IMG/VR virus record: IMGVR_UViG_3300045988_122866
Span: 26,982-90,981 of that record
Direction: 5' to 3' (one strand)
Source of the DNA: a virus
DNA: 64,000 bases
The position numbers were made by a program, and so were the translations under genes. The notes under the pieces are model-generated. The model did no database searches. It was not told the DNA's origin and saw nothing but the letters and a program-made list of their open reading frames with translations. Positions within the stretch are counted from its first letter, which is position 1. Each line of letters begins with the position of its first letter. Positions 1,716 to 50,018 of this stretch are shown here, piece by piece.

Positions 1716-2297
1716 ATGAAAATTAATGGTGTAAATTTACCTAAATCAAGTTTTCTTTCTGTTGAAAAAGATTTAGAAATTATTGTAAAACATCTCTGTA
1801 AAAATGAGAGATTAAAGCGCTTATTGTATTATACAACAAAAGATGCTATTGATAAACCAGATTTAAATGATGAACAAATGATTCAATTATTTAATAAAAA
1901 TATTAAGTTAATTCCTAAACTTTATGTTGATGGAAGTGTATTAAATTATTTAATTATTAATTTTGATAATTTTACACAAAGTGGAAATCCTGAGTTTAGA
2001 GATAATATTGTTGAATTCGATATTATTTGTCATTTTGATCAATGGCATTTAAAAGATTATCAATTGCGCCCTTATCGTATCGCTGCGGAAATTGATAGCA
2101 TGATAGATAAAACGCATTTAACTGGTATTGGTAAGTTAGAATTTCTTGGTGCGAATCAAATTATTTTAACTGATGAATATGCTGGTTTGTGTCTTATGTA
2201 TCAGGCAGTTCATGGCGAGGAAGATAAAAAATTTATGCCGAATCCTAATGACGAGGAAAGATTTATAGAAGATTTTAAAAAAAGAATTGAAGAATAA
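1716..2297 (+). CDS. Hypothetical structural-module protein of 193 aa with no TAG codons
   Basis: Intact ORF in the supplied track with RBS GGAG. The stop overlaps the next start (TAATG). Confidence 0.6.
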   Translation: MKINGVNLPKSSFLSVEKDLEIIVKHLCKNERLKRLLYYTTKDAIDKPDLNDEQMIQLFNKNIKLIPKLYVDGSVLNYLIINFDNFTQSGNPEFRDNIVEFDIICHFDQWHLKDYQLRPYRIAAEIDSMIDKTHLTGIGKLEFLGANQIILTDEYAGLCLMYQAVHGEEDKKFMPNPNDEERFIEDFKKRIEE

Positions 2298-3046: not shown

Positions 3047-4099
3047 ATGAAATTTGGTGTACGCGAAATTTGCGATGTCGTTTTAAAGGCAAAGGCTAAT
3101 CAAAAGATTGGTAATAAGCAATTTTATAAGAATGAGCCAGTTATTTATTTCGACACTTTAAAGACTTCCAGTATGGAAGGCGCTGCTACCACCGTATACG
3201 CACAAGGTGGTCGTGGTAATACTAACTTAGTCGCATGGGAAGGCGAGCGTACTGTTACCTTCACAATGGAAGATGCTCTTATTTCTCCTGAAGGTTTCAT
3301 GATTCTTTCCGGTGCTGGTCTTATTGAAGGTAATAAAGAGACAGGTTTAAAATCTGTTAAAATTAAGCAACATGTTACTCAAACTATTGATAAGGATACT
3401 GTTTCTAAAGTGGCTGATAATACTGCTATTGGCACTAAGGGATTAACTATTCCTCTTAGTTATAATCCTTATTTAAAAGATGGTACTGAGTATGAGAATG
3501 ATGCCACTGCAAAAGACGAAGACTATGTGTATGTTTTCTTTATGAAAGATGGTAATATTATTTCAGAGCCTTATATTGCTCATAAAGGAAGTCATACCAA
3601 AGATAGCTATAGTGTTACTATCGAGAATTCTTTTAAACGTAGCGAAAATGATGAAAATAAAAAATTCAATGATGGTAGCTATAAAGCTAATGATTTAGAA
3701 ACTGATTATAGTAAGTGCGATTCTGTAATGGTTGACTATTATACTGAGCGCGGTGAGGGTGCTAAGCAGATTGAAATTACCGCTGATAAGTTTGGTGGTA
3801 ATTATTATCTTGAGGCTTCTACTTTATTCCGTAATCAAGACGGTGTAGATATGCCTGCCGAATTTATCATTCCTAACTGCAAGATTCAGTCTAACTTTAA
3901 CTTTACAATGGCTTCTTCTGGTGATCCTTCCACCTTTACATTTACTATGGACGCATTCCCTGATTATACTCGTTTTGACCATAGTAAGAAGGTTTTGGCT
4001 GCTATCCAGATTATAGAAGAAAGTGAAGAAAGCGATAATGGTATTCGTATGTCTACTGCTGCAGATAAGGCCGTAGCATCAACTACCACTGGAGACTAA
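3047..4099 (+). CDS. Putative major tail protein of 350 aa with no TAG codons
   Basis: Strong RBS AAGGAGGA. The gene is completely free of TAG in a TAG-rich neighbourhood. It lies upstream of the chaperone-like gene and the tape measure, and is followed after a 60-aa ORF by a strong hairpin terminator. The call rests on position only. Confidence 0.4.
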   Translation: MKFGVREICDVVLKAKANQKIGNKQFYKNEPVIYFDTLKTSSMEGAATTVYAQGGRGNTNLVAWEGERTVTFTMEDALISPEGFMILSGAGLIEGNKETGLKSVKIKQHVTQTIDKDTVSKVADNTAIGTKGLTIPLSYNPYLKDGTEYENDATAKDEDYVYVFFMKDGNIISEPYIAHKGSHTKDSYSVTIENSFKRSENDENKKFNDGSYKANDLETDYSKCDSVMVDYYTERGEGAKQIEITADKFGGNYYLEASTLFRNQDGVDMPAEFIIPNCKIQSNFNFTMASSGDPSTFTFTMDAFPDYTRFDHSKKVLAAIQIIEESEESDNGIRMSTAADKAVASTTTGD

Positions 4100-4104
4100 T
4101 TAAT

Positions 4105-4287
4105 ATGGTTGTAAAAGGTCCAGTAAAATATACTCCACCAAAACAGCCTAAAAAAGAATCTACTAAAAAGCAGCCAAAAGTAGAAAAGGCTGTAGAGAAA
4201 GAACTTATCGAACCTATTGAGGAAGTAGTTCTTCAAGAGGAAGATGAGGTAAGTAAGATTTTATCTGAATTAGATAAAAAAGATTAA
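4105..4287 (+). CDS. Small Lys/Glu-rich protein of 60 aa
   Basis: Intact ORF immediately downstream of the putative major tail protein. Confidence 0.4.
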   Translation: MVVKGPVKYTPPKQPKKESTKKQPKVEKAVEKELIEPIEEVVLQEEDEVSKILSELDKKD

Positions 4288-18359: not shown

Positions 18360-21239
18360 ATGGTTAATAAATTATATCCACCTATTATATCTGGAACTTT
18401 ACCAGCATTTGTTGGATAGGAAATTACTATTCCATTTCAAATGAATCGTGCAGTTAGTATGGTAGAAGTTTCAGGATTGTGTTATATAATTAAAACAGTA
18501 TCAAGCAATGTTGTAATTGCTTAGGGAACAACCGCGGATTTTACTCCAAGCAAAGTTCGCGGTTGCTTGGAACAAGGGTCTATTACTTTCAATATAAACC
18601 TTAAATCAATTACTAATAATGGAAAACCTATCCAGTATAGATTAAATCCAGGATAGTCTTATAAAATTCAATTAGCATATATTAATACTAATGGAGTAGT
18701 CGGATACTATTCTACAGTTGGTATTGCTAAATGTACGACTAAGCCCGCAGTTTATATAAAAGGTTTTGAAGATAATTTAGTAGGAATAAATAAAACAAAT
18801 TTTATTGGAGTATATGGCCAAAAAGAAAAAAATGATGATATTACTGAAAAAGTTTATTCATATAGATTTAAAGTATATGATGAAAATGGTAATATTTTTG
18901 CTGATAGCGGAGAACAATTACATAATTCAATCAATGATACAGAATTAAATGAAAGTTATGATAGCTTTGAATTAAATAAAGAATTACAAAAAAATAAAAA
19001 TTATTTTATTCAATATTCTATAACTACTATCAATAATTATGAAGCAGAAAGTGTTCGTTATCAAATTATTAATAGAGAAACTATTAATCCAGAATTACAA
19101 GCAACTCTTTCTGCGGTTATGGATGAAAATAATGGGTATGTAAAAATTAATTTAAATGGAATCCGTGATAAAAAGACAGGATTAGAAATTCCCACGACAG
19201 GAGCTTTTGCTTTATTGAGAGCCAGTAGCGAAGATGATTTTAATACTTGGAATACAATATTAAAGTTTAAATTAGTTGGTGAAACTCCTTCAAGAGAATT
19301 GTATAAAGATTTTACTGTTGAGCATGGATTTAGTTATCAATATGCGGTGTAGCAATATAGCGATGAAACCGCAGTCCGCAGTAATAAAATTTTCTCTAAT
19401 ACAATATACAGTATTTTTGAAGATAGTTTTTTATATAGTAATGGACAGTTATTAAAAATAAGATTTAATCCAAAAGTAAGTAGTTTTAAAATTAATACTC
19501 TTGAAAGTAAAACTGATACTATTGGAAGTCAATATCCTTATATTTTCAGAAATGGAAATACTTATTATCACGAATTTCCTATAAGTGGTTTAATTTCTCA
19601 CCTTATGGATGAAGATCATTTGTTTATAGATAAATTGGGCGATGATGAAATTAAAGATTTTACATCAACTGATTTGACTAACTATAATATTAATATAGAG
19701 CGTCAATTTAAAACTAAGGCTTTAGAATTTTTAACTGATGGAGAACCTAAGTTATTTAAGTCTCCAACCGAAGGAAACTTTATTGTGCGTTTGTTAAATG
19801 TAAGTTTAAGTCCAGAAGATAAATTAGGTCGTATGCTTCATACATTTAGCGGAACCGCCTATGAAATTGATAAAGTTAGTTTTGATAATCTCACTACTTA
19901 TGGATTTATTGATGCAGATCCGCCTGAAAGTGAAATTCTTAAATGGGATAGTATTTCTTTTGATGGATGGTATAAAATTAATGGGTATATTGATGACGTA
20001 AATACCTATATTGATAACTTAAAAGATGAAAATTTAACTTAGGCAGAAATTAATAAATTACAAGCAAATAAACAAACTTGTTTAGATAATTTATTACAAA
20101 CACTAAGTTTTTATCCTATGTTTGAATTACTTTATAATGGAGACCATTATAGCTTATAGACTAAAGATATCTTGGCTAATTCTCCTGCAATAACTATTCG
20201 ATTTGAAGGTTTTGCGCCGGGAGATAAATTTAATGTTGATGGAGAAGAAATTGTTATTGGTATTACGGGAGCTTATTTAATAGATCATGTAGCTCCTATT
20301 CATAGTGTAAAAATAATTGAATTATCCGATGTAGGATTACAACAAGGAACTATTGTATATTCTTATTATGGTAAACAAGCAAGTAAATTTGATACCATTA
20401 GCGATATTCAAGTTGCTGATTTACCTTTAGAGCAATATTATGGTACTGAAGGTAATATTTTAAATCTTTATAATGATAATTTCAAATATAAAATCACAAA
20501 AATTTATTTCTTGCGTTTTACGAAGCGCGAAGTATAGAAACTATATACTAATAATAGAGTTAATTTTTATATAGCTCCTGATAGGGCATTAGAAGATAAT
20601 AATTATACCATGGAGATTAAGCGTGAAGATTTTGATCCAACTTTAATCTATCATGTGTATGTGGTTAAAGAAAATGAAGAAAGAGATTATTATATTGATG
20701 GTTATACTAAAAAGGAAATTTATGATTCAGGTATTTTAGTAAATGAGAAAAACTGGGCCTGTAATATTAGAATAAATGAAGATAATAAATAGATTATTGG
20801 TATAGACCATAAAAATGAATATCAAATAAAAGATTTGACTGATATTACTTCTATTGAAATTGATCCTGGCGTTTTATGTGAATTGTCAGTACAACGTCAA
20901 GAAATAGTTTATTCTTTTGAAAATGATAATCAAACTACTTATAGAATTTTTAATGGTCAGACTTATACTACAACAACTATTTATCAATTAAAGCAAAATT
21001 GGTTAAGAGCTAAAAAAACTTTAAAAGATTTTAAAGAATTAGAACAAGATAAAAGTAATCCTGACTTCTCTAATGATGATCCATTCTATAATGTAAATCA
21101 AAATAATATTTAGGATTGTATAAAAAAATACAATAGAAAAGTAGCAGAATTACAAAAGATTATAGACGAAACTTATACTTTATTTATTGATACTTTAAGA
21201 AAGGCGGTAGAGGATTATGAAGACTCAAAGACAATATGA
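18360..21239 (+). CDS. Baseplate or tail-associated protein in the Tal/hub position, about 959 aa
   Basis: Frame 0 runs from ATG 18360 to TGA 21237-21239 through TAG only. It joins tool ORFs 19119, 19605, 20172, 20610 and 20835. Confidence 0.6.
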
Positions 21240-23523
21240 TACCGACTTTCTTAAAAAGTTAGATGAATTTAAACATAAAGTAGTTTATGCTCGTATTGAG
21301 CTACTAACATTTGATGAATTACCAATAGAAAGTATAGAGGGTAAGATAACCGGCGGATCAATTAATATTGATGGAACATCTGCGGTCCGCCGGTCTTGTT
21401 CTCTTACTATGGCCACGAATGAGAAATTATATAAACAATATTCTTGGGGTTTAAATTCTAAGTTTAGTTTGGCTATTGGATTAGAAAATAAAATTGATAA
21501 TAAATATCCAGATATTATTTGGTTTAATCAAGGTATTTATTTAATTACATCTTTTAATACTTCTCAAAGTGCTAGCTCATATAATATCTCTATTCAAGGT
21601 AAAGATAAGATGTGTTTATTGAATGGAGATTTAGGAGGAGATTTACCTGCTTCTGTAGATTTTGGACAAGAAGAAGTAATTACTTATAGTTATAATAAAC
21701 AAAATAGTATAACTAAAGATAATTATATAAAAGGTAAATATTGTTATATTGTTAATAGTGAAGAAGAAGCTAAAAAACATAATATTTATTATATTTCTAC
21801 TTAGAATAAACAAACTACTTATTATGTTTTAGATGAAGAAGAGTTTAGTAATAAAGAGTATTATTTAAGAGAGAGTTATTTGAATCTAATTTCAATTCCT
21901 ATTTAGACTATTATTAAAAAACTTCTTACAGTTTATGGCAAAGAAAAAGAAAGTAATATAATTATTAATGATTTAGACCAATATGGTTATGAGTTGTTAG
22001 CTAATAAATGCGATGAAACTATGTATTTTTTCAAAGACGCACAAACGAATAGAATAGTTAATGCTTCGATAGGGACAATGCCTACTTTATTAGATATAAA
22101 TAATAATAAAATAACTGATATGAGTAGTATTAAATTCGATAATTTAGGTAGTAATAAATTATTAGATAACGCTCCTGAACCGACTAAAGTAAGGTTGGTA
22201 AATAATGGAACTATTTACACTATTATAAGTCGAATAACTAATGAAACAGTTGGTTATCGTATTTGTGATTTAGTCTATGCAGGAGAGCTTATTACGAGTG
22301 TTGGTGAAAATATAACTAGTGTATTAGATAAAATTAAAAATATGTTAAGTTGTTTCGAGTATTACTATGATATAGATGGTAGATTCATTTTTTAGCGAAA
22401 GAAATTTTATGAATACCAATCTTGGAATAATATAGTAAAAAATTCTAATGGAGATAATTATATTGAGCCTGCGGTTTATTCTTCTTCTTCAATTTATTCT
22501 TTTAGAGATGGATAGACGGTTATTTCTTTTAATAATACTCCATAGATTGCTAATCTAAGAAATGATTTTTCTATTTGGGGATAGAGAGAAAGCGCTAGTG
22601 GGGCAGAAATCCCTATCCATTTAAGATATGCAATAGATCAAAAACCTATTCAATATACTACAATTATTGTGAATGATAATGATATAAATAGGTATAAATC
22701 TACAATGTATAATAATGATATTTTTGATACTATGAATCCGCAATTAGAACAAAAGACTTATAAAAACAAATGGTATCAAAGCGAAAATGAACCGGGAGTT
22801 ATTTATTGTGATTGGCGTGAAGTTTTATATCGTATGGCTGTAGATTATTATCAATATAATTATGCGGATGATTTTACTAGTAAAGTGGCAACCGCGAATC
22901 CTGATTTTTATCCTTCTGGAATAACTGGTTATGAAACTTATTATGTAGATTTATTTTCTTTTTGGAGAGATATTTATGATTATGATAAGTTAGATTTTAA
23001 AGAAGAAGTAAAGAATAATCCTGAGAATTTAAATTTCTGGTTTGATTTTATTGGAGAAGAAAATGCGGATATTGCTAAATACTCAGTTCAATTAATCGGA
23101 GATAGAACAAAAGCAATTAATGATACTAATATAAAAGTCATATGTTATAGAGATACACCTGATGTATTATTTATGACATAGACAGATTATGATTCTATTA
23201 TTTAGAATAATTATCCAATAGAAAGTGGATATATTTGGATTAATATTCCTTCAGGGTATGATAATTATTTTAAAATTAGTTCTAAAGGTAAGAGCGCAGT
23301 TGATGAAATTGAAGATTTACTTTATACAACAGCTTATTGTACGGAAAGTGTTTCAATTTCTACTATTCCAGTTTATTATTTAGAACCTAATAATAGAATT
23401 TATATTGAAGATAAAAGAAGTGGCGTTGAAGGAGAATATTTAGTTAATAAAATAACTATTCCATTAACTTATAATGGTTCAATGTCTATTAGTGCCACCA
23501 AAGCAATATCAAGAGTATATTAA
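21217..23523 (+). CDS. Baseplate or tail protein of about 768 aa
   Basis: RBS GGAGG precedes ATG 21217, which overlaps the upstream gene by 23 nt. Frame 1 runs to TAA 23521-23523 through TAG only. It joins tool ORFs 21217, 21994 and 22669. Confidence 0.6.
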
Positions 23524-23536: not shown

Positions 23537-23881
23537 ATGGCAAGAAAGATAAGACAAATTCGTTATTATGGTGAAGGTCTTAATTCTAAGAACTATCCAA
23601 GTGATGTTAATATGAGTAAACTAATTACAGGAACCGCATTTAAAAATAATAATCAAAATGTGTTGATTACTCAGTTGGGTATTTAGACTTTACCAGGAAC
23701 GAAATTTTATTTGAATGATAGCTCTAATGCTATTATTGTTGGAAATACTGGTATTTATGAATTAGATTTAGAAGGTATTTCTACTATTAATTTAATTAAA
23801 TTTGACAGAAGTTCTATGAATTTGATTAATCAAAATAAAGAAGCGTATCTTATTATAGATTATTTATTTGAGGAGGGTTGA
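23537..23881 (+). CDS. Small baseplate-module protein of about 114 aa
   Basis: RBS AAGGAGG precedes ATG 23537. Stops at TGA 23879-23881 with one in-frame TAG. Confidence 0.5.
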
Positions 23882-23883
23882 TA

Positions 23884-26199
23884 ATGGGTTTTTATGGTAA
23901 TATAACTAATACTTCAAAAACAACCTTCGCTTTTGATAGAATTTATAATAATAGACTTCAAATGGATAATAATTGTGCTAGCGATGGAGTGTTTTTAGGT
24001 CGCTATGTTTTAGTCGAGTATGGTCTTCCAGCTTCTTAGTATATAATAGGCTATCTTGACAATAATGGGAATATGTATGATGATCCTACTGATAGAAGTG
24101 ATTCTCATATTATTTTATGCGAAAAAGGAAAAATGGTAAAAATTAGTAAAAGTAGTTATTGGTATTTATATACGGGAGATATCAAATCTGATGGTGCTCC
24201 GTATTGGAGATATCTTACTAGAATTACTAATGACAGAGTTGATGATGAATAGTATAATAAAAATTATCAAATAGATTATCCCGTTTATGGACGAGGATAT
24301 GATTCTACCGTTTGGATAAAACAATATATTAATAATCAAGAAACTTATATTTAGATTGCTGAATTAAATACTGTTGTTCCAAATTTTTCAATTTATCCAT
24401 TGCTTCCTCAAGACCCATATGTTGCGGTTGATAACGCTAGTATTGTATATCAACCAGGTAAGTATTATTATTACGATGAAACTGATAGTCATTATAAATT
24501 AGATAATAATGATACTAAAACTGAAGGACGTATTTATTATTTAGAAAGTGAACTTGGACCTGCTATAACTGCAGATCAAAGTAGTACAAATTTACTTTAT
24601 AAATTAAGAGTTCCTACTAATTTTCAACTTGATTTAGATGATAATAATATTTATTATAATAAAGAAGGGTTTAGTAAAACAAAACACTCTTATGATAATA
24701 CTACAAAAAATAGTATTAATTATAAATTAAGTTAGTCAGGATATAAATTTTATTATAATGTAGAATAGGATAATGTTGTTGGTGAACCGATTGAAGATGG
24801 CTATGACCGCAAATCACTTGTAGTAAAACTTCCTGCTCTTGGTAATGCAGTATGTGAAACTTATGATTTACTTTATGGTCAAAATCGTAATGATTCTACT
24901 ACTAATTTTGACAAAACTAATGTTAAGGGAGCTTTAAATACTCTTAATAAAAAAATGAATTTAGGAAAATTAGAGACCAATAAACTTATTTACTTTTCTA
25001 CTGAAACCGATAATGATATTAATGACAATTATATGAAATCTGCGACTATTCAAGGAGATAACCTAATTTCAATAAATGCAGATATCGAAAAAAATGGTGG
25101 AGCTATTAAAATTACCCATAATAATTTAGATGTAAGTAAAGCATCAAAAAATTATGGTAAAGATGTTGATTTTAGTACTTTTGGCTCTTCTATTACTTTA
25201 CCTAAATTATTTACAGATAGAGCTGGGCATATTGTAAAAGAAGAAACATTCTCAGTTAGTATTCCAAAAGGCTCTTATGAAAATACTAAAGAGGGTAATG
25301 TTCTTACTTCTTTAAGTTTTATTGATACTACCGGAGCTTTAAGTAGTGAAAAATCTTATTTAGGTACTTTAACGTTAGGAACTGGATATATTACTAATGA
25401 TAAATTAAATACTATTACCAAAGATACAACTCTTAATGATAGTATTAATAGATTGATTGATAATAGCGATAGCAAATATAATACTTTATTGGGTCAAACT
25501 AATAATAGTTTTGGTAAAGATACTATTCCAACTCTTTATGGCTTAAGACAAGGAATCAATAGTGATAGAGATAATATTAGTAATTTAAGCGATAAAATTG
25601 ATATTTTAAATGGAGCCGTATCTACTACTAATTCTGTTGCTTATAGTATTAAGTAGGCTATTGATAAATTAGATAAAACTGATAACAAGGTAGATAAACA
25701 ATTTGTTACGGCTGTAGAAGAAAAAGATGGTTTAATAACTGTTTCAAGAAGTGCCTTACAAGAAAATGATTTACCTATTACTTTTGATGGAACTTATAGT
25801 AGTAGCAATAAAGTTGCTACTATGAGTAGTTTAAATACTTTAAAAGCAAATCTTTTAGGCGATTATACTGGCACATTAGCTGATGTAAATACTTTAGCAA
25901 GTAGTAAATTAAATGAAGACGCAGTGCGCGGTCTTACGTATAATGCAACTTCTGGAACTAATGGAGCTAAAACCATAGCAGAAATGTTTGATTTAATTGT
26001 AGAATTATAGAATAAAAATACGTAGTTAAATACAACTATTAAGGCATTATAGGATAAAGACGCGGAATCTGATACGACTATTAAAGCATTATAGGACAAA
26101 GATATTGAATTAAATAATTTAATTGCTGGATTAAGAACTGATGTTGATGCTTTAAAGAATAATTCGAATAATACTGATACTCCATCTGAAACAACTTAA
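23884..26199 (+). CDS. Tail fiber protein of about 771 aa with a C-terminal coiled coil
   Basis: Frame 1 runs from ATG 23884 to TAA 26197-26199 through TAG only. The C-terminus has near-tandem heptad-like repeats (…TIKALQDKD…). Confidence 0.6.
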
Positions 26200-26208: not shown

Positions 26209-26240
26209 AGGGTTTGGTCTTAATAGGCCAAACCCTTTTA
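26209..26240 (+). terminator. Rho-independent terminator
   Basis: Stem GGGTTTGG / CCAAACCC followed by TTTT. Confidence 0.65.
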
Positions 26241-26287: not shown

Positions 26288-26869
26288 TTGCCTAATACAT
26301 TAAATAAATATGTAAAATTTGTCAGAGGTTCTAAAACCGCTTTTGAAAATTTAGGGACGAAAAGAGACAATGATACTTTATATTTTATTTATGGAGAAAA
26401 TGATTCTTCTGGAGAACTTTATTTAGGTAGTCGTCTAATTTGCGGTGGAATTAGTTCCGCAGGTAAGTTAAGCGATTTAAGTGATATTGTTCTCAATGAA
26501 GTTAAGACAAATCAAGTTTTAATTTATAATGAAGAACAAAAGAAATGGGTTAATTAGGGTTTAGAAAATAATGAGACTTTAATTAATTCTATTGTTGAAA
26601 AATTATCTACAGAAGAAAATTTAGCTAAATTAGCTCCTGTTTTTAAGGGTACAGTCCCAGGTTTAGTTCCAGTTTCTTTACATGAAATCAAAGGAAAACA
26701 TATTCTTACTGATGCAGGCACATGGATTAATATGCCAGTAGGAACATTAACTTAGGGAGATATTGAAACAATTAATATAGCTAATAAATATTTAGTAGAT
26801 AAAGGTCCTGATAATTTGGTAACTCGTGTTGAAGCAGTTGAACAAACTGTTTCTTGGTCTGATATTTAA
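26288..26869 (+). CDS. Tail fiber / receptor-binding paralog A, about 193 aa
   Basis: TTG start after RBS AAAGGAG. Its N-terminal motif (KFVRGSKTAFENL…LYFIYGE) is shared with the genes at 26884, 28664 and 39095. Two in-frame TAG; stops at TAA. Confidence 0.55.
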
Positions 26870-26883: not shown

Positions 26884-28545
26884 TTGAACGTTAAGTTTTT
26901 AAAAGGTTCTCAAGCCGAATTTGAAAATGTGGCAGGCAGATATAAACCTGGTGCATTTTATTTAGTAATTAATGATGATAAGTCCGCAGAGGACTATAAA
27001 AAGCCAAGCCGTCTTTATTATGGCGTAGATGAAAATAATTGTGTTCCTGTAAATCAAGGTATTAATGTAGTTGATACTACCGCAGGTTTACCTCAAAGTT
27101 TTGCTCAAAACACTGCTGGTGAATTTTATTATGTAAAAGATAAAAATATTTTATGTATTAATAATGGTAAAGGTTGGATTCAAACTAACACCGATACTGT
27201 TTTAGATACTAATAAAAAAAATAGCAATGTATCAGTAAACAGCAATCCTGAAAAACCTAATGGAGTTTCTATAACTAATACTATTGCTGACAGTAGTGGT
27301 AATATTATTACTGAGACTTATGATATTATAGGTAGCGATTATATCCAAATTGAAGCAGTTCCTGCTGTTGATGATAAAGGTGTAGACACTGTTAAACTGA
27401 GTTTAAAAGGAATCAATTATCAATTAAGCTCTTCTTTAAATGAAAAAACTTTAAATGTTAATTTGAAAAATACTGATACTGACGCAGGTAATTTTAATAT
27501 TATTGCTGGTAGTAATGTTAATATTGCTGAAACTTCTACAGGAAACTATACATTAAGTGTAAATAAAGCTGTTGATAGTATTGATGTAGTTAATCACGGT
27601 ACTGGTACTGGTTTTACTGCTTCTATTAGTGGTCCTGGTGTTGAAGGAGCTGGTAATGGTACGACTTTATCTGCTGATATTGATCCAGAAATTGCTTTAG
27701 AAGGCAAGACTGGTAGCTACAAATTTAAAGATGGCGTTTTAACTCTTCCTGTTTATAGCAAACAAGATATTGATAATCAACTTAGAACTATTAATGCTAT
27801 GGTATTCCGTGGCGGATTCCAAGTTAAAGATGGAGCTATTGCTTATGATAATTCTGATATTACTGAAATTACTGAAGGTAATACCTTTATTTATACTGGA
27901 GCCGAAGATACACTTTGGAATGGTCATTATTTACGTCCTGGTGATTTAATTATTGCTTCTGGTGAAGAAGTTAATGGGGTTATTACTGGTACTATTAATT
28001 GGACCTATGTTCCTTCTGCCGATGATCCTGTTACTGAAATTGAAGGAGCCAATGATAATAGTACTGCTGGTTTTATCATTAAACTTGGTTCTACTAAAAA
28101 ACTTTTAGATTATGCTCTTAACGGTGAAAGTGGTATTGTTTTAGAAACAAAAGTTTTAACAGATTCAAAAGGTCAACCTACTAATTCTAAAGTTGTTACT
28201 ATTAAACATAGTAATACTTTAACTGTAAATACTCCAGTTTCTCAACCCTATGCTGATGAACAAACTATTACTATTAATGAGCCAACTGAAATTGATGCTC
28301 AAGGGCATGTAATTAAATCTACTCAAAAAACTTTTACTGTAAAAAATACTCATCAAGAAATTGCTAATGCAGATTATACGGTAAATGGTACTGATACTTT
28401 AATTCCTAATCTTAAAGTTGCTGGTGCTGATCTTGAAGGCAAACCGCTTGTTTTCACTAGTAATAGCCTAAAGGTTAATGTTTCTGCGGCGACTGCGACT
28501 GATGATGCTAAAGTTAATTTTGAGTTAGAGTGGGGAACATTCTAA
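26884..28545 (+). CDS. Tail fiber / receptor-binding paralog B, 553 aa with no TAG codons
   Basis: Intact in the supplied track. The N-terminus (KFLKGSQAEFENV…FYLV) matches the shared anchor motif. Confidence 0.65.
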   Translation: MNVKFLKGSQAEFENVAGRYKPGAFYLVINDDKSAEDYKKPSRLYYGVDENNCVPVNQGINVVDTTAGLPQSFAQNTAGEFYYVKDKNILCINNGKGWIQTNTDTVLDTNKKNSNVSVNSNPEKPNGVSITNTIADSSGNIITETYDIIGSDYIQIEAVPAVDDKGVDTVKLSLKGINYQLSSSLNEKTLNVNLKNTDTDAGNFNIIAGSNVNIAETSTGNYTLSVNKAVDSIDVVNHGTGTGFTASISGPGVEGAGNGTTLSADIDPEIALEGKTGSYKFKDGVLTLPVYSKQDIDNQLRTINAMVFRGGFQVKDGAIAYDNSDITEITEGNTFIYTGAEDTLWNGHYLRPGDLIIASGEEVNGVITGTINWTYVPSADDPVTEIEGANDNSTAGFIIKLGSTKKLLDYALNGESGIVLETKVLTDSKGQPTNSKVVTIKHSNTLTVNTPVSQPYADEQTITINEPTEIDAQGHVIKSTQKTFTVKNTHQEIANADYTVNGTDTLIPNLKVAGADLEGKPLVFTSNSLKVNVSAATATDDAKVNFELEWGTF

Positions 28546-28606
28546 GGGCAATACTATTTAATAATAAATATAATTTTTTCTATTTTATATAGAAGAATGT
28601 TTTTAT

Positions 28607-28644
28607 GGGGAAAGATGAAATATTCTTTCCCCATATTTTTTTTA
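28607..28644 (+). terminator. Rho-independent terminator
   Basis: Stem GGGGAAAGA / TCTTTCCCC followed by ATATTTTTTTT. Confidence 0.65.
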
Positions 28645-28663: not shown

Positions 28664-31600
28664 ATGTCTAAGATACGTTTTCGTCCTGTATAGGGTCCAG
28701 AAGAAAAAATAAAAGAATATCCTCAAAGCGATGGATATTTTTATGTGGCAACAGATACAGGCCGAATTTATTTAGATACGGCAACTGAAAATAAAATGCC
28801 AATAGGGTCTAGTGGTGTTCAGGTAATTTACGGTACAGATAATACTGTAGAAATTGAATATGATGCGGATGAAAACCCAGTGGCTTATTTAATTCTTTTA
28901 TCAAAATTATCTATAACAAATTGTCATATAGATGATTTAATTTTAAATTTAGACGGATGTTTTTATCGAATTTTAGGATTTGCTTTAAATGAAAACCGCG
29001 AAGAATGTGCGAGATGTGAAAAATTAACTGTCGCCGGGGCGGGCGGTGGCGGAGAAGGAGACTCTGAACAAAAAGTTTTAGGAACTGTTTCTTTAACAAG
29101 AATTCCACCCGATAGTCCTGTTGATGTTTTGAATGAAGAAAATGTTAAAGTAAAGGTATTGGTTAAATGTAGAACTGTTGGAGGAGTTCCACAATCTTCT
29201 TCTGTGCAAGGAATTATAACTATAAGCGAAATTAAAAGTGCTACAGAAAAAGAAATTTATTATACTTCTCCTCCTACTACTTATGAGCATAATATTCCGC
29301 AAGAAATTGATTTAACTAATATTTTAAGAAATTCATGTTCTAGTGAAATTAATTTTAGTATTTATTATAATCCTGATAAAGAAAATAATAGATTTTAGAA
29401 AAGCTCTGATACTATTAATATTAATAAACATCATCTTTCTTTTACTTGGAAAGAAAGTAGTTTTAGTAATGATAGTCCAGTTGATAATGGACAAATATCT
29501 GTTAGTTGGTTAATGTCTGAAGATATTGCTAGATCTGTTGAAGTTTATTTTGATGATTATTTAGTTTTAGATAGAACTTATAGTGATACTGATTCTTCTT
29601 CTGAAGATTCTTTTGTTATTACTCCTGATACAAATATATTAGGGACTGATAAAGTTTCTACTTTAAAAAATTATTTTACTCATGGTGAGCATATAATAAA
29701 GGCAAAGTTATATTTAATGAATAATTCTAAAAAAGGTACAGGAACAGATTTTATTTAGAAAGAAATCGTTATTCAAGAACCAGGCAATAAAATGCCTTTA
29801 ATTTGGGTACAAGATTTTAAAACAGAATATTATACTTATGAGACAATAAGAATTCCTTTTAAAGTATTAGATCCAAATAATAATGGAGCTTTTATAACTC
29901 TTTATAAAAATGGTGTTCAAGTAGGAACTAGAGAATTAGATAGTTCGCAAGTTAGAGAATGGCAATATTGGGAAATTACTAATTTAACTGTAGATGATAG
30001 TTCTTATTATACTATTAAAGTTGGTACTGATCCTTATTCTTATTCTCGTAATTTTAATTTTACAATTTTAATTGACCCTTTAAGAGATATGAAGTTAGTA
30101 AAAAAAGATAATTTAAAGGTTAATTTTATAGCTACTGGTCGTTCTAATTCAGAAGGAAAATTAGGTCGTGAAACTTATTTAATTAATAATAATAAATATG
30201 TAGAATTTAAAAATTTTAACTGGTATAATAATGGTTGGGTTTTTGATGAAAATAATACGACTTGTTTACGAGTAAGCAATGGTGCTGAAGTATCTATCCC
30301 AGTCGGAAAAATGGCTTTTAAAGATGGATCATCATCTGCTACTATTGAGATTCAATTTAAAATAAAGAATCCTCAAAATTATGCTAAAGTTATAACTAAA
30401 TATACTAGATATAAAGTAAGTAAAGATAATTGGGAAGATAATGATGCTTGGGATAAATTTAAAGCCCAAAATAAATATCTTAATTATGATGAGTTTTTAA
30501 CTAAAGAATATTTACCGACAACTAATTATACTTATGATGATTTAGAATATAATAAAATAGAACAAGATTTTAATTTAAAGAATTTAGTTTGTGCATATGG
30601 TAAATTAGAGAATTCTGTTTCTCCTGGTATTTATTTTAGTCCATAGGATGCTGTATTTACAGCTAACGGGGCTCAAGAAACAGTTTCAGTTGATTTTATT
30701 GAAAATGAAATGCTAAATCTTTCATTTGTTTATACTAAAAAGAAAAGTGATATAGAAGGCGGAAATTCTAAATTATTAGAAATTTTTATGAATGGCGTTT
30801 TAACTAGTGTTGTACGTTGTAGTAGTGATGTTTGGAATATTGATTCTGATTTCATTAAATTTATGTCTAATACTTGTGATATTGATATTTATAGTATTAG
30901 AGTTTATGATACAGATTTAACTATTCCTGAAATAGTCCAAAATTACGCTTTTGATAAGAGAAGTATAAAACAGTGGGACCAAAAAGATCTTTATGAAAAC
31001 AATACGGTATTAAAAGATGATGTATTTTCTTATACTAAAATGAAAAAGTATAATGATAATCATCCGACTGAACCTTTAATGCCCTATATTATTCTAAGGA
31101 CTACTAAAAATAATAAAAATAATACGGATAATAGATTACCTTATTCTAAAGCAAAAGGAAGCTAGGAAGGAACTTTAGAATTTGTTAACACTGCTTTAGA
31201 CGCTGCTTACAATAGTGGTGAATTAGAAAAAGTTGCTATAAAAGAAGGATGGAAACCTGTAATCGAAAAAAATGAAGAAACATAGGAAGAAGTAGTAAAA
31301 TATACTGCGGTATAGAATTATTATATGCATCATTGTCCTAGTTTTATAACTGTTCTTAATGGATGTACTTTCCAAGTTCAAGGGACTTCTTCACAATTTT
31401 ATCCTCGTCGTAATTATAAAGCTAAATGCAAAGAATCAATGCTTTTAAATAGAGGCCCATTTGCTGAAGACTATAAAAAAGCAGGAGACTAGTATAATGA
31501 AGATATAACTAAACATCCTTGTTATTTAGAGTGGTTTTATATGGATAATAAGACAGTCGGTACTACTAAATTTACTTTAAAAATAGATTTTATGGAATCT

Positions 31601-34600
31601 TCTGGAGATTATAATAGAGGATTTGCTAATTTAGTTAACGAGATTTATTCTAAACATCCAGTAGAAGACTATAAAGATTCTTTTGATAATTATAATTTAT
31701 ATGGAAATTTAGAAGATTATCGCACTTCGGTAAAAGGATTCCCCGTTTTAGCTTTCCATTATATGTCCAACGATGATAATACTTACTCTAAGGAAAATAG
31801 TAATAACTGTATTTTTATTGGCAAATATAATATGTTATTAGATAAAGGCTCAGATGAATGTTTTGGATTTAAGCCAAATAAAAAGATTTTACAAAATCAA
31901 ATTACGGGCAACCCTAAAGTAAGAGATATGGCAGAATGTTGGGAATTTTAGAACAATTCAAGAACTTTTTGCTCTTTCCGCGACCCTTGGAATCGTTATA
32001 AATTATCATTTAGAAATCCTAATATGGTAATCCCTCCAGATGGAGATAATCCTGAATTAGTTAAAGGCGCTCCAAAAGTCGTTGATTCTTTTGAACCAAG
32101 ATATAATCCAAATGATGATTTAATTGCTGATAATTTATTTAGTTTAAAAGAGTGGCTTGATCCAGATGGGACATAGACTAAGATTGTTGGGGAAGAATTA
32201 AAAAATGTAGCCCCAGATAGACTTACTAAAAAAGAAATAGTTGATGAAATTACTGGTATAAAATCTATTAAATGGATTATAAAGAACCCAGACGGAGAAG
32301 AAATAGAATTTAATGTTGCTAATGATACAAGTAAACAAGAATTACTCTTAGCTTTAATGTCTAACTGGGAAGACGCAGTTAGTTGGGTGTGGAGTACTTG
32401 TTTAGATTGCGATATTGAATTTGATGATGGATAGAAATTAAAAATTCCATCTATGGGCATTTATACTAAAGTTGATGGATTAGCTGAAGCTATATATGTT
32501 CCTAATGTCTATTATGTTGAAGATGGAGTTAATGAAAATGGAAAAATTATTTATAAATTAGCTTCTGAAGAATATAACTCTGAAACAAGATATTATAAGT
32601 AGATTAATGAAAATAATAGTTTAAAGTATGTAAGCATAAAACTTACAAATAATTCAGATAAAGTATATAAAGCAAATATTTATTATCTTTTAACTGATAG
32701 TAAAAATGAAATTTATGTATTAAGTTCTGATAAATTTAATTCTTCTTTAGATTATTATTCTTTTAATAAAAATGAAGAAGGTATTGAGGAAAGATGGAAA
32801 TTACCTAATCCAGTAACCTATGGCTCTATTACTTATACTAAAGATAGTAAAGAATACCGTCAAGCTAAATTTAAAAATGAATTAAGTAATTTCTTTGATA
32901 TTGAATATTTAGCTTCTTACCTTTTAATGACAGAAATTTTTGAATGTTATGATTCTCGTGGAAAAAATGCAATGTTTGCTTCTTGGGGACCTCAAAAAGG
33001 TAATATTCAAAAATCTACTGGCAAACAACATTATATTTGGTATCCTATCTTTTATGATATTGATACTCAATTAGGTATTAATAATACTGGTATCCCATCT
33101 TTTGAATACTACATTGATGCTACTGAAGAAGGAAGTTTTTCAACTAATGATAGTGTTCTTTGGAATAATTTTTACACTTTCTTTAGAAGTAAGATGGTGG
33201 ATAAATATAAGCAATTAATGGGAACTCAAAATAATTCTTATAGTCCAAATGATTCAAGAGTAAATAAAATTTTTACCAAAGGAGCAGGAAGCGGGGCTAA
33301 AAAAAGTGATATTGTAGATAAATGGTATCGTACTGATCCATCGGTATTTCTTGATAGCTATGCCGTTCTAGGAGACAGACCAATTGTTGCCTTAAGTTTA
33401 GACGAAGAATTTAAGTATATTATTCCAACAAACTCTAAAGCCAAAGATATGCCAGTGTTTGGTCGTTTGACTGATGGAGGTTCATATGAGGTTGAAGATG
33501 ATAAATATTTTTATGCTTTGCAAGGAGATAGAAATCTTTATCGCGCGCAATTTTTAGCAAATCGTCTTAATTACATCGACTCTTGGTTAACCGTTGGTAC
33601 TTATGCTAGAAATGGTGGAGGAAGTTATATCAGAAGTCGTATTTCTGCGAATAATCCTAAAAATACGTCTGATAAATGGATTGAAGGTACTAATACTCAA
33701 AATATGGAAGGATTAATTACAAATTCTTAGTATTGGAAAAATAATGCTGAATTCGGAGAAAAAAATCATATTTTTGATGGTGAGTATTGGATTAATATGG
33801 AACCCGCCCGCAATGCTTATGTCACTATTGGTACAGATGGAGAGAATTTTCCTTCAAAGAAATATAATGGTTTAGAACCAGTTAAATATGTAGCTCCTGA
33901 TATTAAAAAAGGGATTATGAGTAGTGGTAATTATAAAGAACAATTATATTATATTTATGGAATGGATCAAATGAAATCTCTCGGTGATTTAAGTAAATTA
34001 TATTTCCAAGAGTTCGCGGCTGAAGGAAAAATGGAGCGTTTAACTGATTTATTATTAGGATATGATGGAAAAGATGAAAGTGGTAATGAATATTTTAATA
34101 ATGATGTAAATGACTGGTCCTTCTCAAAAGGCGGAATGCCTTTACTTAAAGAAATGAATCTTTGTAATATTAACTTTAAAAAAGACTAGGGGGCATTAGA
34201 TTTAACTAAAAGTGAAAAACTTGAAAACTTTAGAAATACTAAATCTAATATCCCGAGAGTTAATTTTGCTCCTGGAGTAGCTTTAAATACTTTATATTTA
34301 ACCAATCGAACAAATTATTTAAGTTTAATAGAAGCTAATTTATTAACGAAATTAATAACTAACTATATATATCCTGAAAAAAATCCAATTACTGGAAAAC
34401 TTGAGGTCTCAGATGAAAATCGTGGTTTATATATTCAAGGTCTTACTGATGCTGAAGAAGGAAAAGAAAAAACCGAGATAAGAACTTTTGATATTCGAGG
34501 CGGTAATTTAGGTTATAATAGTTATGAATTGTTACGCAAATATATTTCAGCTAGTAAAAATAGTAAATTAGATTTATCTAATTGTATTATTAATTTAAAT

Positions 34601-36409
34601 AATGTTTAGTGGAGTCCATATAGACTTCTAACTGACACTAAAACAACTCTTGATCCAGAAAGAAAATCTTATTATAGAGATAATGGACATTTTTAGTTGG
34701 TAGCTATTCCAAAAGATTAGGTTAATAAAATAACAAAATCTGATATTAAAAATAATTAGATTTATTATTTAGATACAATAAATGGAGACAATAATAATCA
34801 TAGTATAATAACTGATTATAATTTATTAATTGATATTTATAATAATTATAGGGGTCTTAATACTAATAAGCCAGAAATATCTGGTGTTATGTATATAAAA
34901 AATAATAATTAGATTGATGAATCTATTATCTAGACTGAGTTATAGGATAAATACCCTGATTTAATAATTTTTGTAGAAAATGTTAAACAAGAATGTTCTG
35001 CCAAGTTTATTTTAGAAAAAGAAGATATTGATGGAGTATTAATTTAGGAGGTTCTAAAAACTTAGAAATTACCCTTATCTAGCAGTAAATTCTTTGATGA
35101 TCCAACAAATTCTTCTAGCGAAACTTATATTTCTTTTGGTAGCTTACAAGAAAAAATGCCAACTTATGATTTTAAAGGTTGGGAAGATGATACGGGGGAA
35201 TTAGTAATTACTGTTGGAAAAAATGTAAATGAAGAAGACGTTGTTTTAAAAAGCGATTGGAATTCTTTGTCTTTACAATCTAATAAAATGGATTATATTT
35301 TTAAAGCGAGATTTGAACGCAAATCTTATACGATCACTTTCGTTAATGGTGACCGCGTTATTAATGATTCAACTGTAAAGAAAGTATTTAATTATGGTGA
35401 AAGAATTACTGTTCCAGAAGAATTTTATTATTTTAATAATACAGAAGTATCTGATTTACCAGAAGGTGAAGACTCATTAGAATGGACTTGGAGATAGACG
35501 GGATGGGCGGATAAAGATGGAGTTAAAATTGATTTAACTAAACAATTAGCCTATGCTGACCGCGAATTCTACGCTGTTGGAGAGCCGATTAGTGTTTATG
35601 ATAATATTTTAACTAATGATTCTACTCATAAATATTATGATATTATAAATTCTGATGGAGAGTTATCATTTGTAATGACTGACTTAGCTAAGAATTTAAA
35701 AGGTAAAGTTACTTTACCTACAACTTATAACGGTTAGCCGATTACAAGAATTAAATATAGCCAAGTTAATCCATCAGCAGCAGTTGGTATTCAAGTAAAT
35801 CCTAATATCACTGCGATATTTTTTGCTCCAAAAGATAGCAATAAAATTTCTGTAATAGATGATTATGCTTTTATTTTAGATAGTGGGTTAGAATATTTCC
35901 AATTTAGTGATTGTTTAAAGAAAATTGGTACTAAAGCATTTTATCAATGTCCTTTAAGTCGTAATAACATAATTCCTTATTCTTCTTCTACTGAAGGTTT
36001 GACTTTTGGAGCTCAAGCATTTTATCAAAGTAAGATGGGTTCTTATTCTCCTTATAATTTAATTATAGAGGGATGCAAAGACGGTATTCTTAATTTTGAT
36101 ATAAATGCATTTTCTGGTCAGACAATTTTAAATATGTCTGGTAATTAGTTTAAAGGTTATACTGGCGCTATTCAAGTATAGATTGGTACTAATAAACACC
36201 CAATTAAACAAATTACAGCAGATAGCTCTGGCAATATTTTTACTCCTCGTCAAACTGGTATGCCTACAGTGGCTAATGGATACACAGGTCGTTTTAGATA
36301 TTATTATGTTGCTAGTTATGGTGAAAGTATTAAAAATACTTTACACAATATTTATGAAGCAATGATATCTAATAGAGCGAATTTTGAAGAAGAGCCTATT
36401 GTAAAGTGA
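28664..36409 (+). CDS. Giant tail fiber / receptor-binding protein of about 2581 aa with a BspA-type leucine-rich-repeat C-terminal region
   Basis: Frame 2 runs from ATG 28664 (RBS AAAGGAG) to TGA 36407-36409 with about 45 in-frame TAG and no TAA/TGA. It joins tool ORFs 28745, 29513, 29792, 30710, 31541, 32927, 33797 and 35156. The N-terminus carries the shared fiber anchor motif. The C-terminal third has a Flg_new / Listeria-Bacteroides-repeat-like segment and BspA-like LRR repeats (…ISVIDDYAFILDSGLEYFQFSDCLKKIGTKAFYQC…). Confidence 0.65.
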
Positions 36410-36418
36410 GGATAAATT

Positions 36419-36619
36419 ATGGAAAAAGAAATTGTTTATAGATATATGGGTTCTAATGGTATTATTGAATCTTCTATATAGTTAACAGGAATTCCTGTGA
36501 CTAAATTATATAGATTAATAGCGGATTATAATAAAAAATTAACGAGAGATGGAAAAGAATTCTTTTCCATCTCTCCTTTAGTTCCCGAAGATGAATTAGA
36601 AGAATGGTATGAGGTCTAA
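36419..36619 (+). CDS. Small protein of 66 aa downstream of the giant fiber gene
   Basis: ATG immediately after the giant fiber gene's stop. One in-frame TAG; stops at TAA 36617-36619. Confidence 0.35.
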
Positions 36620-47784: not shown

Positions 47785-50018
47785 TCTAATACTCCCGTAT
47801 GTTTTATCCTTGCTTCAACTTCTTTTTGTTTACCCCAGTTAAAAGCAGTTTTATAATTACCTGTAAGATAACCGGTCACACGACGTAATTGTTGAATATT
47901 GTGGCTTCCGCACACTGGGCAAGAATCATTAAATTCATCACAATAACCACATTCAAGACAAGTATCATTAGGAACATTTACTGCGAAATAAGGAATATCA
48001 TGATCCATAGCATAATTAACAATAGTTTCAAGAGCATCAATATTATGTTTTACCGTAGAATCAAGTTCAACATAAGTGATACATCCTGCGGATGAATAGC
48101 CAGTCAGCTCAGATTCAATATCAATTTTTTCAAATGGACTCATTTCTTTCCACACCGGAACATGAATACTGTTAGTGAAAAATTCTCTATCACTAACATT
48201 AGGGATAATTCCATACCTTTCTTTAAATTTCGTCATAGCTGTATAACAAAGATTTTCTGCTGGGGTATAGTATACACCAAAATTTAATTTATATTTTTCT
48301 TTATATTCAGCACATCTTTCTTTAAAGCGCTTTTCAATCTTCTTAGCAATTTTCATACCATATTCAGTGGTATGGTCTTCACCAACAAGAATTTGAAGGG
48401 TTTCCGCAAGACCAATTTGACCAATAGCAAGAGTTCCATGTTTAAGAGCGGAACGAATTCCTTCTTCTGGAACATAACCAGCCATGACATTATTTTCATA
48501 CATAAATCTCGCAGACCCAGGGTCTTGAGAACAAATCCATTCAAAACGCTCCATTAATTGAATACGTGCTTCATTAATCTTTCTATCAAGCAAAGCTAAG
48601 AAAACAGGAATAACATCTTCTTCTTGTCCTTCTTTCTAACATTCTTCTTTTGCTATCATAGCAAGAGTGGGAAGAATAATAGTAACAGGACAAATATTTC
48701 CACGTCCGTCTTTAAGCTGACCAAATCCGTTAATGTCCCAGCCATTCGCAGTTCTACATCCCATTGTAGAGAAATAAGTGCGAGGATCATTGATATCATA
48801 TCCTGCATTGCCAGACCAATCAACATTCGCGTAATTAGGATAAAGGCGTCTCGCGGTACTTTCTAATGCTAATCTATATAAATCATAATTAGGATCGCCT
48901 GGTTTGCGGTTAACACCTTTCATACATTGGAAAATTCCGCAAGGGAAAATCGAAGTTTTATGAAGTTTACCAAGACCTTCAATAGAAACATCTAATAACG
49001 CCTTAGTCACCATTCTGCCTTCTGGTAAGGTGCAAGTGCCATAATTAATACTCGTAAATGGTAATTGGTTACCGCTACGAGACTGTAAAGTATTAAGATT
49101 ATGATAAAGACCTTCCGCAGCTTGATGAGTTTCACGGACAGTCATTTTCATAGCATATTTATATGCTTTTGGAAATGATTTATAAAAATCATCTTCAATA
49201 GAAGTTTCTTTACTATAGCAGCCATCATATTTATTCATATCTAATCCTTCATATAAAAACTCAATACCATCATTGAAATGTTTAAAGAAAGATTTTCTTA
49301 CATAAGGAACCATAGTCCAATCTAAGTGAGTGGCACTAACTCCACCAAACTAGCAAAGGCTTTGGATTTGGAAAATAACAGCAATTAATTGAAATGCTGT
49401 ATTAATTGAACCCGCAGGACGAACATCTGCTTGACGAGTATTAAATCCATTAGCAAGTAAATCGTCAAAAGGAATACTTAAGCAATTATGAGAACCAACA
49501 TAATAAGAATCAAGATCGTGAGTATAAATAATATTATCAATATGATTCTTACGAGCCATTGGTGAAAGTAAATAATCAAGTGCAAGTTGCTTAGTAACAA
49601 CACTACTTGCTTCACCTGTGCGGCCGCCGAATGAATGTTCGTCAACGTTAGCATTTTGATTCTTTACATTATTGCCATCAAGTTTTTCACGAATTGCTTT
49701 AATAAAATCGTCTTTTTTATTACGAGCAACTTCTTTTTTATATCTATATCTGATATAAGCACGAGCAACATCACGTCGCTCAGAGCGCATTAAATAATCT
49801 TCAATCCAATCTTGAAGATCTTCTACTCCAACACTTCCATCAGGGAAATGATTTATTTGTCTTTCAATATCTTCCGCGATATCTTTTGCGGTATCATCTT
49901 CATATAATTTACCATCAACTTCAATAAATGCTTTATTGATAGCATTAATAATTTTCTTTTTATTAAATTGAGTTATACTTCCATCACGTTTAATAATATA
50001 CAAATTTTTTGCCTCCAA
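47781..50018 (-). CDS. nrdD: Anaerobic (class III) ribonucleoside-triphosphate reductase
   Basis: Three tool ORFs (49350-50018, 48636-49313, 47781-48593) lie in one frame and are separated only by TAG at 49350-49352 and 48636-48638. The C-terminus has the glycyl-radical motif RVTGYL and a Zn-ribbon Cys cluster. Confidence 0.9.

Follow-up and report, generated by a model that had tools for sequence, protein, structure and literature searches.

Why should three genes be entirely free of TAG when they lie in a module in which TAG is one of the common codons for glutamine? The question is raised by a 64,000-nucleotide stretch of viral DNA (IMG/VR record IMGVR_UViG_3300045988_122866, positions 26,982 to 90,981, hereafter 'the window', whose own numbering is used throughout), and above all by gene B, a 553-codon open reading frame (ORF) at 26884-28545 that encodes a putative tail-fiber or receptor-binding protein. 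The other two are a 350-codon gene encoding a homologue of major tail (tube) proteins and a 193-codon gene encoding a virion structural protein (Table 1). A reading made from the sequence alone had offered two explanations, selection against suppression-dependent codons in the most highly expressed structural proteins and, as the better fit for gene B, recent acquisition from a standard-code phage. Comparison with related genomes suggests a different answer, in which the three genes probably lack TAG for three different causes: selection in the tail protein gene, sampling in the 193-codon gene, and the particular allele that the window carries of gene B.

Glutamine codons of the three genes

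The 24 genes of the late module use TAG for 214 of 587 glutamine codons (0.365), and all three ORFs are present where the sequence-only reading had placed them, each with no in-frame TAG (CAA/CAG/TAG counts of 16/0/0 in gene B, 6/3/0 in the tail protein gene and 6/1/0 in the 193-codon gene). Gene B is short of TAG rather than of glutamine, since its total of glutamine codons (TAG, CAA and CAG together, 2.9%) is similar to that of its neighbors (3.0-4.4%). At the TAG share of the fiber region (0.30), finding none among 16 has a probability of 0.003; every 553-codon stretch in the other late genes holds at least two TAGs, and in those late genes that contain TAG (the 350-codon tail protein gene being set aside) runs without it reach 375 codons at most. 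With about 20 genes tested, the complete absence of TAG from gene B is nevertheless marginal. For the tail protein gene the corresponding probability within the window is 0.005 (0/9) and the family-wide signal described below is overwhelming, and for the 193-codon gene it is about 0.06 (0/7), which is not significant.

The phage and its genetic code

The window has a G+C content of 30%, and its ORFs of at least 100 codons sum to 69 kb with TAG as a sense codon versus 41 kb under the standard code. At 14 of 21 TAG sites in the window, glutamine is the majority residue in standard-code relatives; this alignment indicates that TAG means glutamine (code 15), and the phage is predicted to read it so. 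Read-through of TAG restores full-length versions of NrdD, a RecJ-like gene, the tape measure and the fibers. Head-tail joining, tail and fiber genes occupy the + strand from 1 to 40.7 kb, and a replication block on the − strand from 45 to 64 kb includes PolIII-alpha, NrdD, a RecD-like helicase, a RecJ-like protein, primase and DnaB, as well as SPbeta-like Pfam matches to YorF, YorH and YonG_N. The source is an SPbeta/Phass-1-like siphophage of roughly 190 kb, and related IMG/VR contigs range up to 181-201 kb.

The family to which this phage belongs (tail protein 59-66% identical) also includes phages that keep the standard code, with TAG truly terminating genes such as the one for the portal, and recoded and standard-code members co-occur, many of them in one metagenome (IMG 3300045988). 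The possibility that these standard-like relatives are partly recoded, with single TAGs in their portal ORFs, was considered and rejected because that TAG is the real stop of the portal gene; they thus truly use the standard code.

TAG avoidance in the major tail protein gene and two head genes

The product of the 350-codon gene matches phrog_2729 (E = 9e-54), has homologues in ~140-kb Enterococcus siphophages annotated as 'virion structural protein' (39% identity), and in tblastn searches finds Bacillus phage proteins annotated as 'major tail protein' (28% identity, E 4e-19 to 3e-21). Downstream of its gene lie three ORFs (60, 350 and 177 codons) and, beyond them, a 2828-codon tape-measure-like ORF (6120-14606). 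Tail-tube matches in a sequence search of the PDB were weak (E = 0.05), a profile search of PDB sequences came back empty, and a Foldseek comparison of the low-confidence structural model with the PDB gave only noise, with no match at E <= 0.001, and was not used. The family PF27173, precomputed for homologues of the tail protein, did not appear in a local Pfam search at E <= 1.

A scan of IMG/VR with the tail protein returned 80 orthologous loci (55-86% identity), which we sorted by the TAG content of their other genes into 53 TAG-recoded and 27 standard-code loci. Across the 53 recoded loci the glutamine codons of the tail protein gene comprise 7 TAG, 223 CAA and 294 CAG, a TAG share of 7/524 (0.013); the five flanking gene families in recoded loci have shares of 0.29-0.50, and against the pooled value of 0.416 the binomial p is 2e-108 if phylogeny is ignored. 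The gene is TAG-free in 47 of the 53, and the rare TAGs are scattered singletons at differing codons, none of them common to relatives. CAG makes up 0.56 of its glutamine codons in the recoded set and 0.62 in the standard-code set, the equivalent figures for the flanking genes being 0.06-0.10 and 0.20-0.33. Because the CAG share of the tail protein gene is high under both codes, the preference for CAG appears to predate recoding and to have persisted through it.

Two head genes have the same character. They lie upstream of the region homologous to the window, after the portal and scaffold genes, and their products, p305 (305 codons) and p368 (368 codons), are probably a decoration protein and the major capsid protein (MCP). 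Their TAG shares are 0.012 and 0.015 and their CAG shares 0.66 and 0.75, respectively, with a G+C content at third codon positions (GC3) of 0.33-0.34; over the TAG-avoiding class as a whole GC3 is 0.27-0.34. Pfam searches with the putative head proteins found no matches, and sequence and profile searches of the PDB with the MCP-like protein gave nothing or E values of about 0.05-0.06. Over 13 gene families, the CAG share in standard-code relatives correlates negatively with the TAG share in recoded ones (Spearman -0.64, p = 0.018). The 60-codon ORF immediately behind the tail protein gene has 1 TAG, 10 CAA and 24 CAG over 11 orthologues, a usage like that of the tail protein gene, and could be either a frameshift extension or a co-expressed small protein.

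The same features are found outside the family. In Phass-1 the tail-protein homologue has 0 TAG and 12 CAG and the MCP-like ORF 0 TAG and 15 CAG, and the ORFs adjoining those two have 6-9 TAGs each; Phass-1 is a distant, independent code-15 lineage with the same TAG-free, CAG-rich pattern.

The codons CAA, CAG and TAG would interconvert at glutamine sites by single transitions at each step, so that the TAG share of a gene would represent a balance between mutation and selection. The genes with the largest pool of CAG codons, each one C-to-T transition from TAG in an AT-rich genome, are yet those with the least TAG, which argues for purifying selection. Selection against suppressor-dependent codons in abundant virion proteins, as seen in the tail protein, thus appears well supported by these comparisons. 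Such selection would remove TAG from a small class, the tail protein and the two head proteins, whose preference for CAG and raised GC3 would already have been in place in standard-code relatives. The likely cost would arise in highly translated messages, where decoding by the suppressor would be slow or inefficient and would have to compete with release factor 1.

The 193-codon gene behaves differently. In recoded relatives TAG accounts for 0.336 of the glutamine codons of its orthologues, of which 13 of 52 are TAG-free, and given this normal share and the presence of only seven glutamine codons, the zero in the window is best explained as sampling noise. Selection in highly expressed structural proteins, as put forward by the sequence-only reading, therefore holds up for the major tail protein but fits neither this gene nor gene B, which has a GC3 of 0.13 and no preference for CAG.

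Gene B is polymorphic for TAG among its relatives

Nineteen IMG/VR contigs carry orthologues of gene B (81-97% identity), all with a TTG start and a TAA stop, and 14 of them have one to three in-frame TAGs, each opposite a CAA in the window. These TAGs fall at five codons (Table 1), and at three of the five, codons 58, 299 and 313, all of CAA, CAG and TAG are found among the genomes. Ten of the 15 glutamine columns in B are never TAG, five are polymorphic and none is fixed; polymorphic columns make up 33% in B versus 36% in its neighbors, where 19% are fixed for TAG, and B differs solely in having no old, fixed TAGs. The TAG frequencies at the five sites (0.25, 0.15, 0.20, 0.15 and 0.45 in 20 genomes) predict that about 24% of genomes should have a TAG-free gene B, and 6 of the 20 do. 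All 20 genomes of the clade carry the gene in synteny, and a contig from GTDB has it too, with no patchiness in its distribution; its within-clade synonymous diversity of 0.195 compares with 0.10-0.28 in its neighbors.

The GTDB contig is the sole match to B in 185,579 genomes. It is CAMELE010000001.1 (locus L152; 163,874 nucleotides), labelled as an uncultured Mollicutes metagenome-assembled genome (MAG), and it encodes a B that is 91% identical, with one TAG, in the same TAG-recoded fiber module; almost certainly it is a phage of the same clade that was binned into a bacterial MAG. A set of 5.8 billion proteins contains truncated versions of B (311-458 amino acids), which we suspect to be the work of standard-code gene callers stopping at such TAGs. 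PHROG and Pfam searches with B found no match, blastn and tblastn searches of GenBank phages with B and its surroundings found nothing, and no homologue is detectable in Phass-1. The predicted structure is beta-rich and of low confidence, with a predicted local distance difference test score (pLDDT) of 61 and a predicted template modelling score (pTM) of 0.22; a Foldseek comparison of this model with the PDB and a PDB profile search gave noise or nothing and were not used.

These relatives bear directly on the proposal that B was recently imported from a standard-code phage. The closest homologues are themselves TAG-recoded, with TAG at codons 58, 100, 299, 313 and 460 opposite the CAA of the window. 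Codon usage and GC3 are like those of the flanking genes, the distance in relative synonymous codon usage (RSCU) falling at the 82nd percentile of 553-codon late-gene windows and GC3 at the 12th, and the use of CAG (0 of 16 in the window, 5% in the clade) is like that of recoded neighbors. No standard-code donor above 24% identity was found in IMG/VR, the 5.8-billion-protein set, GenBank phages or GTDB: every B homologue of at least 36% identity with genomic context lies in a TAG-recoded genome, and the only standard-code one (L146) is 24% identical. Orthologues with TAG at equivalent sites, which the sequence-only reading had itself named as grounds for refutation, together with typical codon usage, thus refute a recent import from a standard-code phage.

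A mosaic two-gene block

Gene B sits between baseplate and tail genes and a 2581-codon fiber-like gene, directly behind gene A. As the sequence-only reading had it, A carries two TAGs (at 26555 and 26753); the in-frame TAGs of the giant gene number 27 and not about 45. That reading had also treated the three genes as paralogs, a relationship that is apparent for A and B in an N-terminal stretch (31% over 45 amino acids, E = 2e-4) but not for B and the giant gene, between which BLAST detects no similarity. PHROG and Pfam searches with A gave nothing useful, only a sub-threshold match to Phage_tail_C. TAG is the majority codon at two glutamine sites of A.

Comparison with three loci from syntenic recoded phages, L119, L121 and L141, shows a pronounced peak of divergence at A and B. 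The flanking proteins are 72-99% identical in L119 and L121, and over the three loci A is 53-59% and B 36-40% identical; at the nucleotide level, identity to all three is ~50-60% across the A-B block, with flanks of 85-99% in L119 and L121. On its left the block begins at ~25.75 kb relative to L119 and at ~26.55 kb relative to L121; on its right, each of the three comparisons shows a sharp break at ~28.5 kb. Sharp breakpoints, as had been anticipated, therefore exist, but on one side they coincide with the 3' terminus of B and on the other they fall within A or ahead of it, and not near codon 60 of B; an N-terminal anchor breakpoint at that codon was rejected, identity being only slightly higher over the first ~100 codons. 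The block is bracketed by two hairpins (Table 1), of which the left, read directly from the sequence, has a counterpart at the same place in L119, was not flagged by a consensus terminator scan, and marks the left edge of an A-B transcription unit. Gene B thus lies in a recombination hot spot, a two-gene cassette flanked by terminators.

Other alleles of B, 36-40% identical and in syntenic recoded phages, have TAG at 3/14, 5/21, 7/18 and 7/21 of their glutamine codons (21-39%). More distant homologues (24-28%) are found in TGA-recoded phages and in one standard-code phage, the former being five loci that look TGA-recoded (L143-L145, L147 and L148). When IMG/VR was scanned again with the conserved tail gene at 21217-23523, only the same 19 contigs came back, and the comparison thus covers the fiber regions of recoded phages. 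Modules are shuffled among the relatives: B is closest in 3300029860_000004 (97%), whose tail protein is only 64% identical, and the tail protein is closest in 3300014039_000024 (86%), the contig in which B is most divergent (81%).

Why gene B lacks TAG in the window

The reading we favor is that gene B has long been resident in a TAG-recoded clade, with TAG reaching only polymorphism at 5 of its 15 glutamine sites, and that the window happens to carry the CAA allele at all five. The low TAG share of B would then most likely reflect allele history or drift over few glutamine sites, TAGs being few because the route from CAA through CAG to TAG takes two steps.

Several observations weigh against this reading or against its counterpart for the tail protein. 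The mean TAG frequency per glutamine column is 0.081 in B versus 0.306 in its neighbors (permutation p = 0.005; Mann-Whitney p = 0.02), and none of the 15 columns in B is majority-TAG, as 27% are in the neighbors (p = 0.009), so that the TAG share of B is below what drift alone comfortably explains; with several genes tested, the deficit is modest. The tetranucleotide distance of B (0.414) is slightly outside the null distribution, whose maximum is 0.390. For the tail protein, the label 'abundant virion protein' comes from 28%-identity homology to annotated major tail proteins, from gene order and from codon bias, and the AlphaFold model averages a pLDDT of 52 and falls under 50 in the conserved core. 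Because the relatives are not independent of one another in their phylogeny, family-wide p-values are overstated. No tRNA, including a suppressor tRNA (CUA), was found in the window, about one third of the ~190-kb genome, or in seven related loci, and we infer suppressor decoding as the mechanism.

Some of these points would be accommodated by an older introgression, in which a TAG-free B allele entered from a standard-code or TGA-recoded relative before the 20 genomes diverged and gained TAGs neutrally thereafter. Such an event would agree with the 50-60% nucleotide identity of B and the 3' half of A between flanks of 85-99% and with the sharp right edge near 28.5 kb, although the divergent block also includes the two TAGs of A. 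It would account for TAGs that are polymorphic only and never fixed, when 27% of the neighbors' columns are majority-TAG and other B alleles have normal TAG shares, and for the slightly outlying tetranucleotide distance; the depletion is nevertheless based on only 15 glutamine columns. Potential sources are at hand in the standard-code family members of the same metagenome, and distant B homologues occur in TGA-recoded phages and one standard-code phage, yet no donor-like allele was seen outside TAG-recoded genomes in four large collections, and the CAG share of B fits recoded neighbors and not the 20-33% of standard-code relatives. On balance we regard an older introgression as unlikely but not implausible. 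A broader form of the idea, which we likewise find unlikely, would treat TAG share as a record, close to zero where suppression is costly (the abundant virion proteins), nearing an equilibrium with CAA of ~40-50% in genes that are long-resident and weakly selected, and intermediate in alleles whose history lay partly outside genomes that read TAG as glutamine, with B, whose five polymorphic TAGs would be young, entering from a relative that does not read TAG as glutamine shortly before the clade radiated; if so, B would illustrate, in nature, gene flow across genetic codes at a receptor-binding locus.

Selection acting on B itself would require high or suppressor-independent expression, for example through earlier timing or through translation before the code switch, to purge TAG. 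Its TAG share of 0.081 is the lowest among fiber-region genes with at least 15 glutamine columns (the others have 0.18-0.36), and the gene, which belongs to a terminator-flanked unit of its own, is served by a strong ribosome-binding site. Its GC3 of 0.13, however, compares with 0.27-0.34 in the TAG-avoiding class, it has no preference for CAG, its glutamine sites are polymorphic for TAG as often as those of its neighbors, and 14 of 19 orthologues tolerate one to three TAGs; other B alleles hold 3-7 TAGs, and the co-transcribed gene A has a TAG majority at two glutamine sites. High expression is thus an unlikely cause of the low TAG share of B, and we consider selection of this kind on B very improbable.

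Recent acquisition from a standard-code phage, suggested by 553 TAG-free codons amid a TAG-rich module and by the mosaic locus, is hardly credible given siblings of 81-94% identity with TAG at equivalent glutamine sites, synteny in all 20 clade genomes with neighbor-like synonymous diversity, typical codon usage and GC3, and the failure of any standard-code homologue to exceed 24% identity.

Other features of the window and its relatives

Table 1. Coordinates of features in the window and loci used for comparison.
Feature	Position	Strand	Remarks
Virion structural protein (phrog_6123)	1716..2297	+	193 codons; TAG-free in window only
Major tail (tube) protein homologue	3047..4099	+	350 codons; TAG-free; relatively CAG- and GC3-rich
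60-codon ORF	4105..4287	+	5 nt after tail protein stop, in another frame
Upstream fiber-like gene	23878..26199	+	773 codons; 10 TAGs; 3' end from ~25.75 kb in divergent block relative to L119
G+C-rich hairpin and T run upstream of A	26209..26240	+	GGGTTTGGTC-TTAATA-GGCCAAACCC-TTTT
Gene A	26288..26869	+	193 codons; N-terminus similar to B; 2 TAGs inside divergent block
Gene B, putative tail-fiber/receptor-binding protein	26884..28545	+	TTG start; AGGAG ribosome-binding site; 553 codons
B codon 58	27055..27057	+	CAA in window; TAG in 5 relatives, CAG in 1
B codon 100	27181..27183	+	CAA in window; TAG in 3 relatives
B codon 299	27778..27780	+	CAA in window; TAG in 4 relatives, CAG in 6
B codon 313	27820..27822	+	CAA in window; TAG in 3 relatives, CAG in 4
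B codon 460	28261..28263	+	CAA in window; TAG in 9/19 relatives
Terminator-like hairpin	28604..28635	+	12-bp stem, then T8; just 3' of B; coincides with right breakpoint
Giant fiber-like gene	28664..36409	+	2581 codons; 27 in-frame TAGs
Standard-code/recoded family members	L020-L099		especially L031-L049, L058-L060, L064, L065, L071, L083, L085
Module-shuffling loci	L001/L053 and L014/L020		

Recoding is not confined to the late module. A NrdD-like gene with an ATP-cone N-terminus (47781-50003, − strand) appears as three ORFs (270, 225 and 222 amino acids) under the standard code and as a single 740-amino-acid protein when its two in-frame TAGs are read through, and the presence of TAG in this replication-block gene indicates that recoding extends beyond the late genes. 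In the same block, the gene for a RecJ-like DHH protein (59044-60792, − strand) has six in-frame TAGs, and the PolIII-alpha (50646-54635, 50 glutamine codons), primase and DnaB genes have none, so uneven a use of TAG in this 'early' block equalling that of the late block. A putative endolysin (58151-58990, − strand), whose orthologue in L149 has a Pfam match to Phage_lysozyme2, is also encoded there with 0 TAG among 11 glutamine codons, in contrast to the published preferential recoding of lysis genes.

At the other extreme, a 66-codon gene (36419-36619, + strand) has a sole conserved glutamine site, at which TAG is shared by the window with 18 of 19 relatives and is essentially fixed. The 350-codon gene at 4352-5404 (+ strand), between the tail protein and tape measure genes, uses TAG for 12 of its 17 glutamine codons, a higher share than in any other gene of the window that has 15 or more such codons; an orthologue was detectable in 1 of 80 related loci, which suggests a fast-evolving or replaceable slot. 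What is a single tail gene in the window (21217-23523) is represented in L119 (4356-6718) by two overlapping ORFs that cover residues 1-538 and 540-768; a frameshift, an assembly error or programmed slippage could be the cause.

Discussion

The three TAG-free islands examined here appear to represent one case of selection, one of noise and one of a polymorphic haplotype, and such islands in a recoded phage should not be taken as foreign DNA before sister genomes are checked. That abundant virion proteins are nearly TAG-free despite the largest CAG pool suggests that suppressor decoding has a measurable cost, and a comparison of TAG share with CAG share across standard-code and recoded relatives offers a simple gauge of it. 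Because TAG-free genes are predicted correctly by standard-code gene callers, they should also be reliable markers for phages of this type.

Gene families of gut code-15 phages have been tested previously for preference of TAG versus CAA/CAG (Borges et al., 10.1101/2021.08.26.457843). Lysis genes and a crAss tail-tube family were found to be enriched in TAG, and the integrases of temperate phages to avoid it; no avoidance in abundant virion proteins was reported, and the words 'capsid' and 'highly expressed' are absent from that text (10.1101/2021.08.26.457843). The phage described here resembles those phages in that its in-frame TAGs are concentrated in structural genes and aligned with glutamine, and in the presence of closely related standard-code and recoded members in one clade. 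Unlike the enriched crAss tail-tube family, however, the tail-tube homologue of this family strongly avoids TAG, tracking an existing preference for CAG.

Phass-1 (GenBank OQ749652; NCBI 'Caudoviricetes code 15 clade') is, like the phage of the window, a gut siphophage that reads TAG as glutamine and encodes a polymerase of the PolIII-alpha type. Its homologue of the tail protein shares 49% identity, and it differs in its smaller genome (136 kb) and higher GC3. The paper describing it notes TAG in the TerL and tape measure genes, which it lists beside those for MCP and PolIII, and not in the MCP gene, and it does not discuss TAG avoidance in abundant proteins (PMC10607447).

Gene B invites comparison with mosaic tail-fiber and receptor-binding cassettes, sharing with them a peak of divergence (36-40% amino acid identity) between conserved flanks (72-99%), sharp breakpoints and several alleles per slot. 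In contrast to chimeras of an N-terminal anchor and a C-terminal head, the alleles of B are homologous over their full length and have a conserved C-terminal ELEWGTF motif.

Finally, the pattern in the tail and head genes is that of classical codon-usage bias, in which a few very abundant proteins favor one codon, here CAG, and avoid a poorly decoded one, with GC3 raised against the mutational bias. It departs from the classical case in that the disfavored codon is a reassigned stop, that its decoding depends on a phage suppressor tRNA and that misreading truncates the protein, where otherwise it would only slow its translation. What is seen here is thus codon-usage selection extended in a straightforward way to a stop codon that has been reassigned, rather than a new kind of system.

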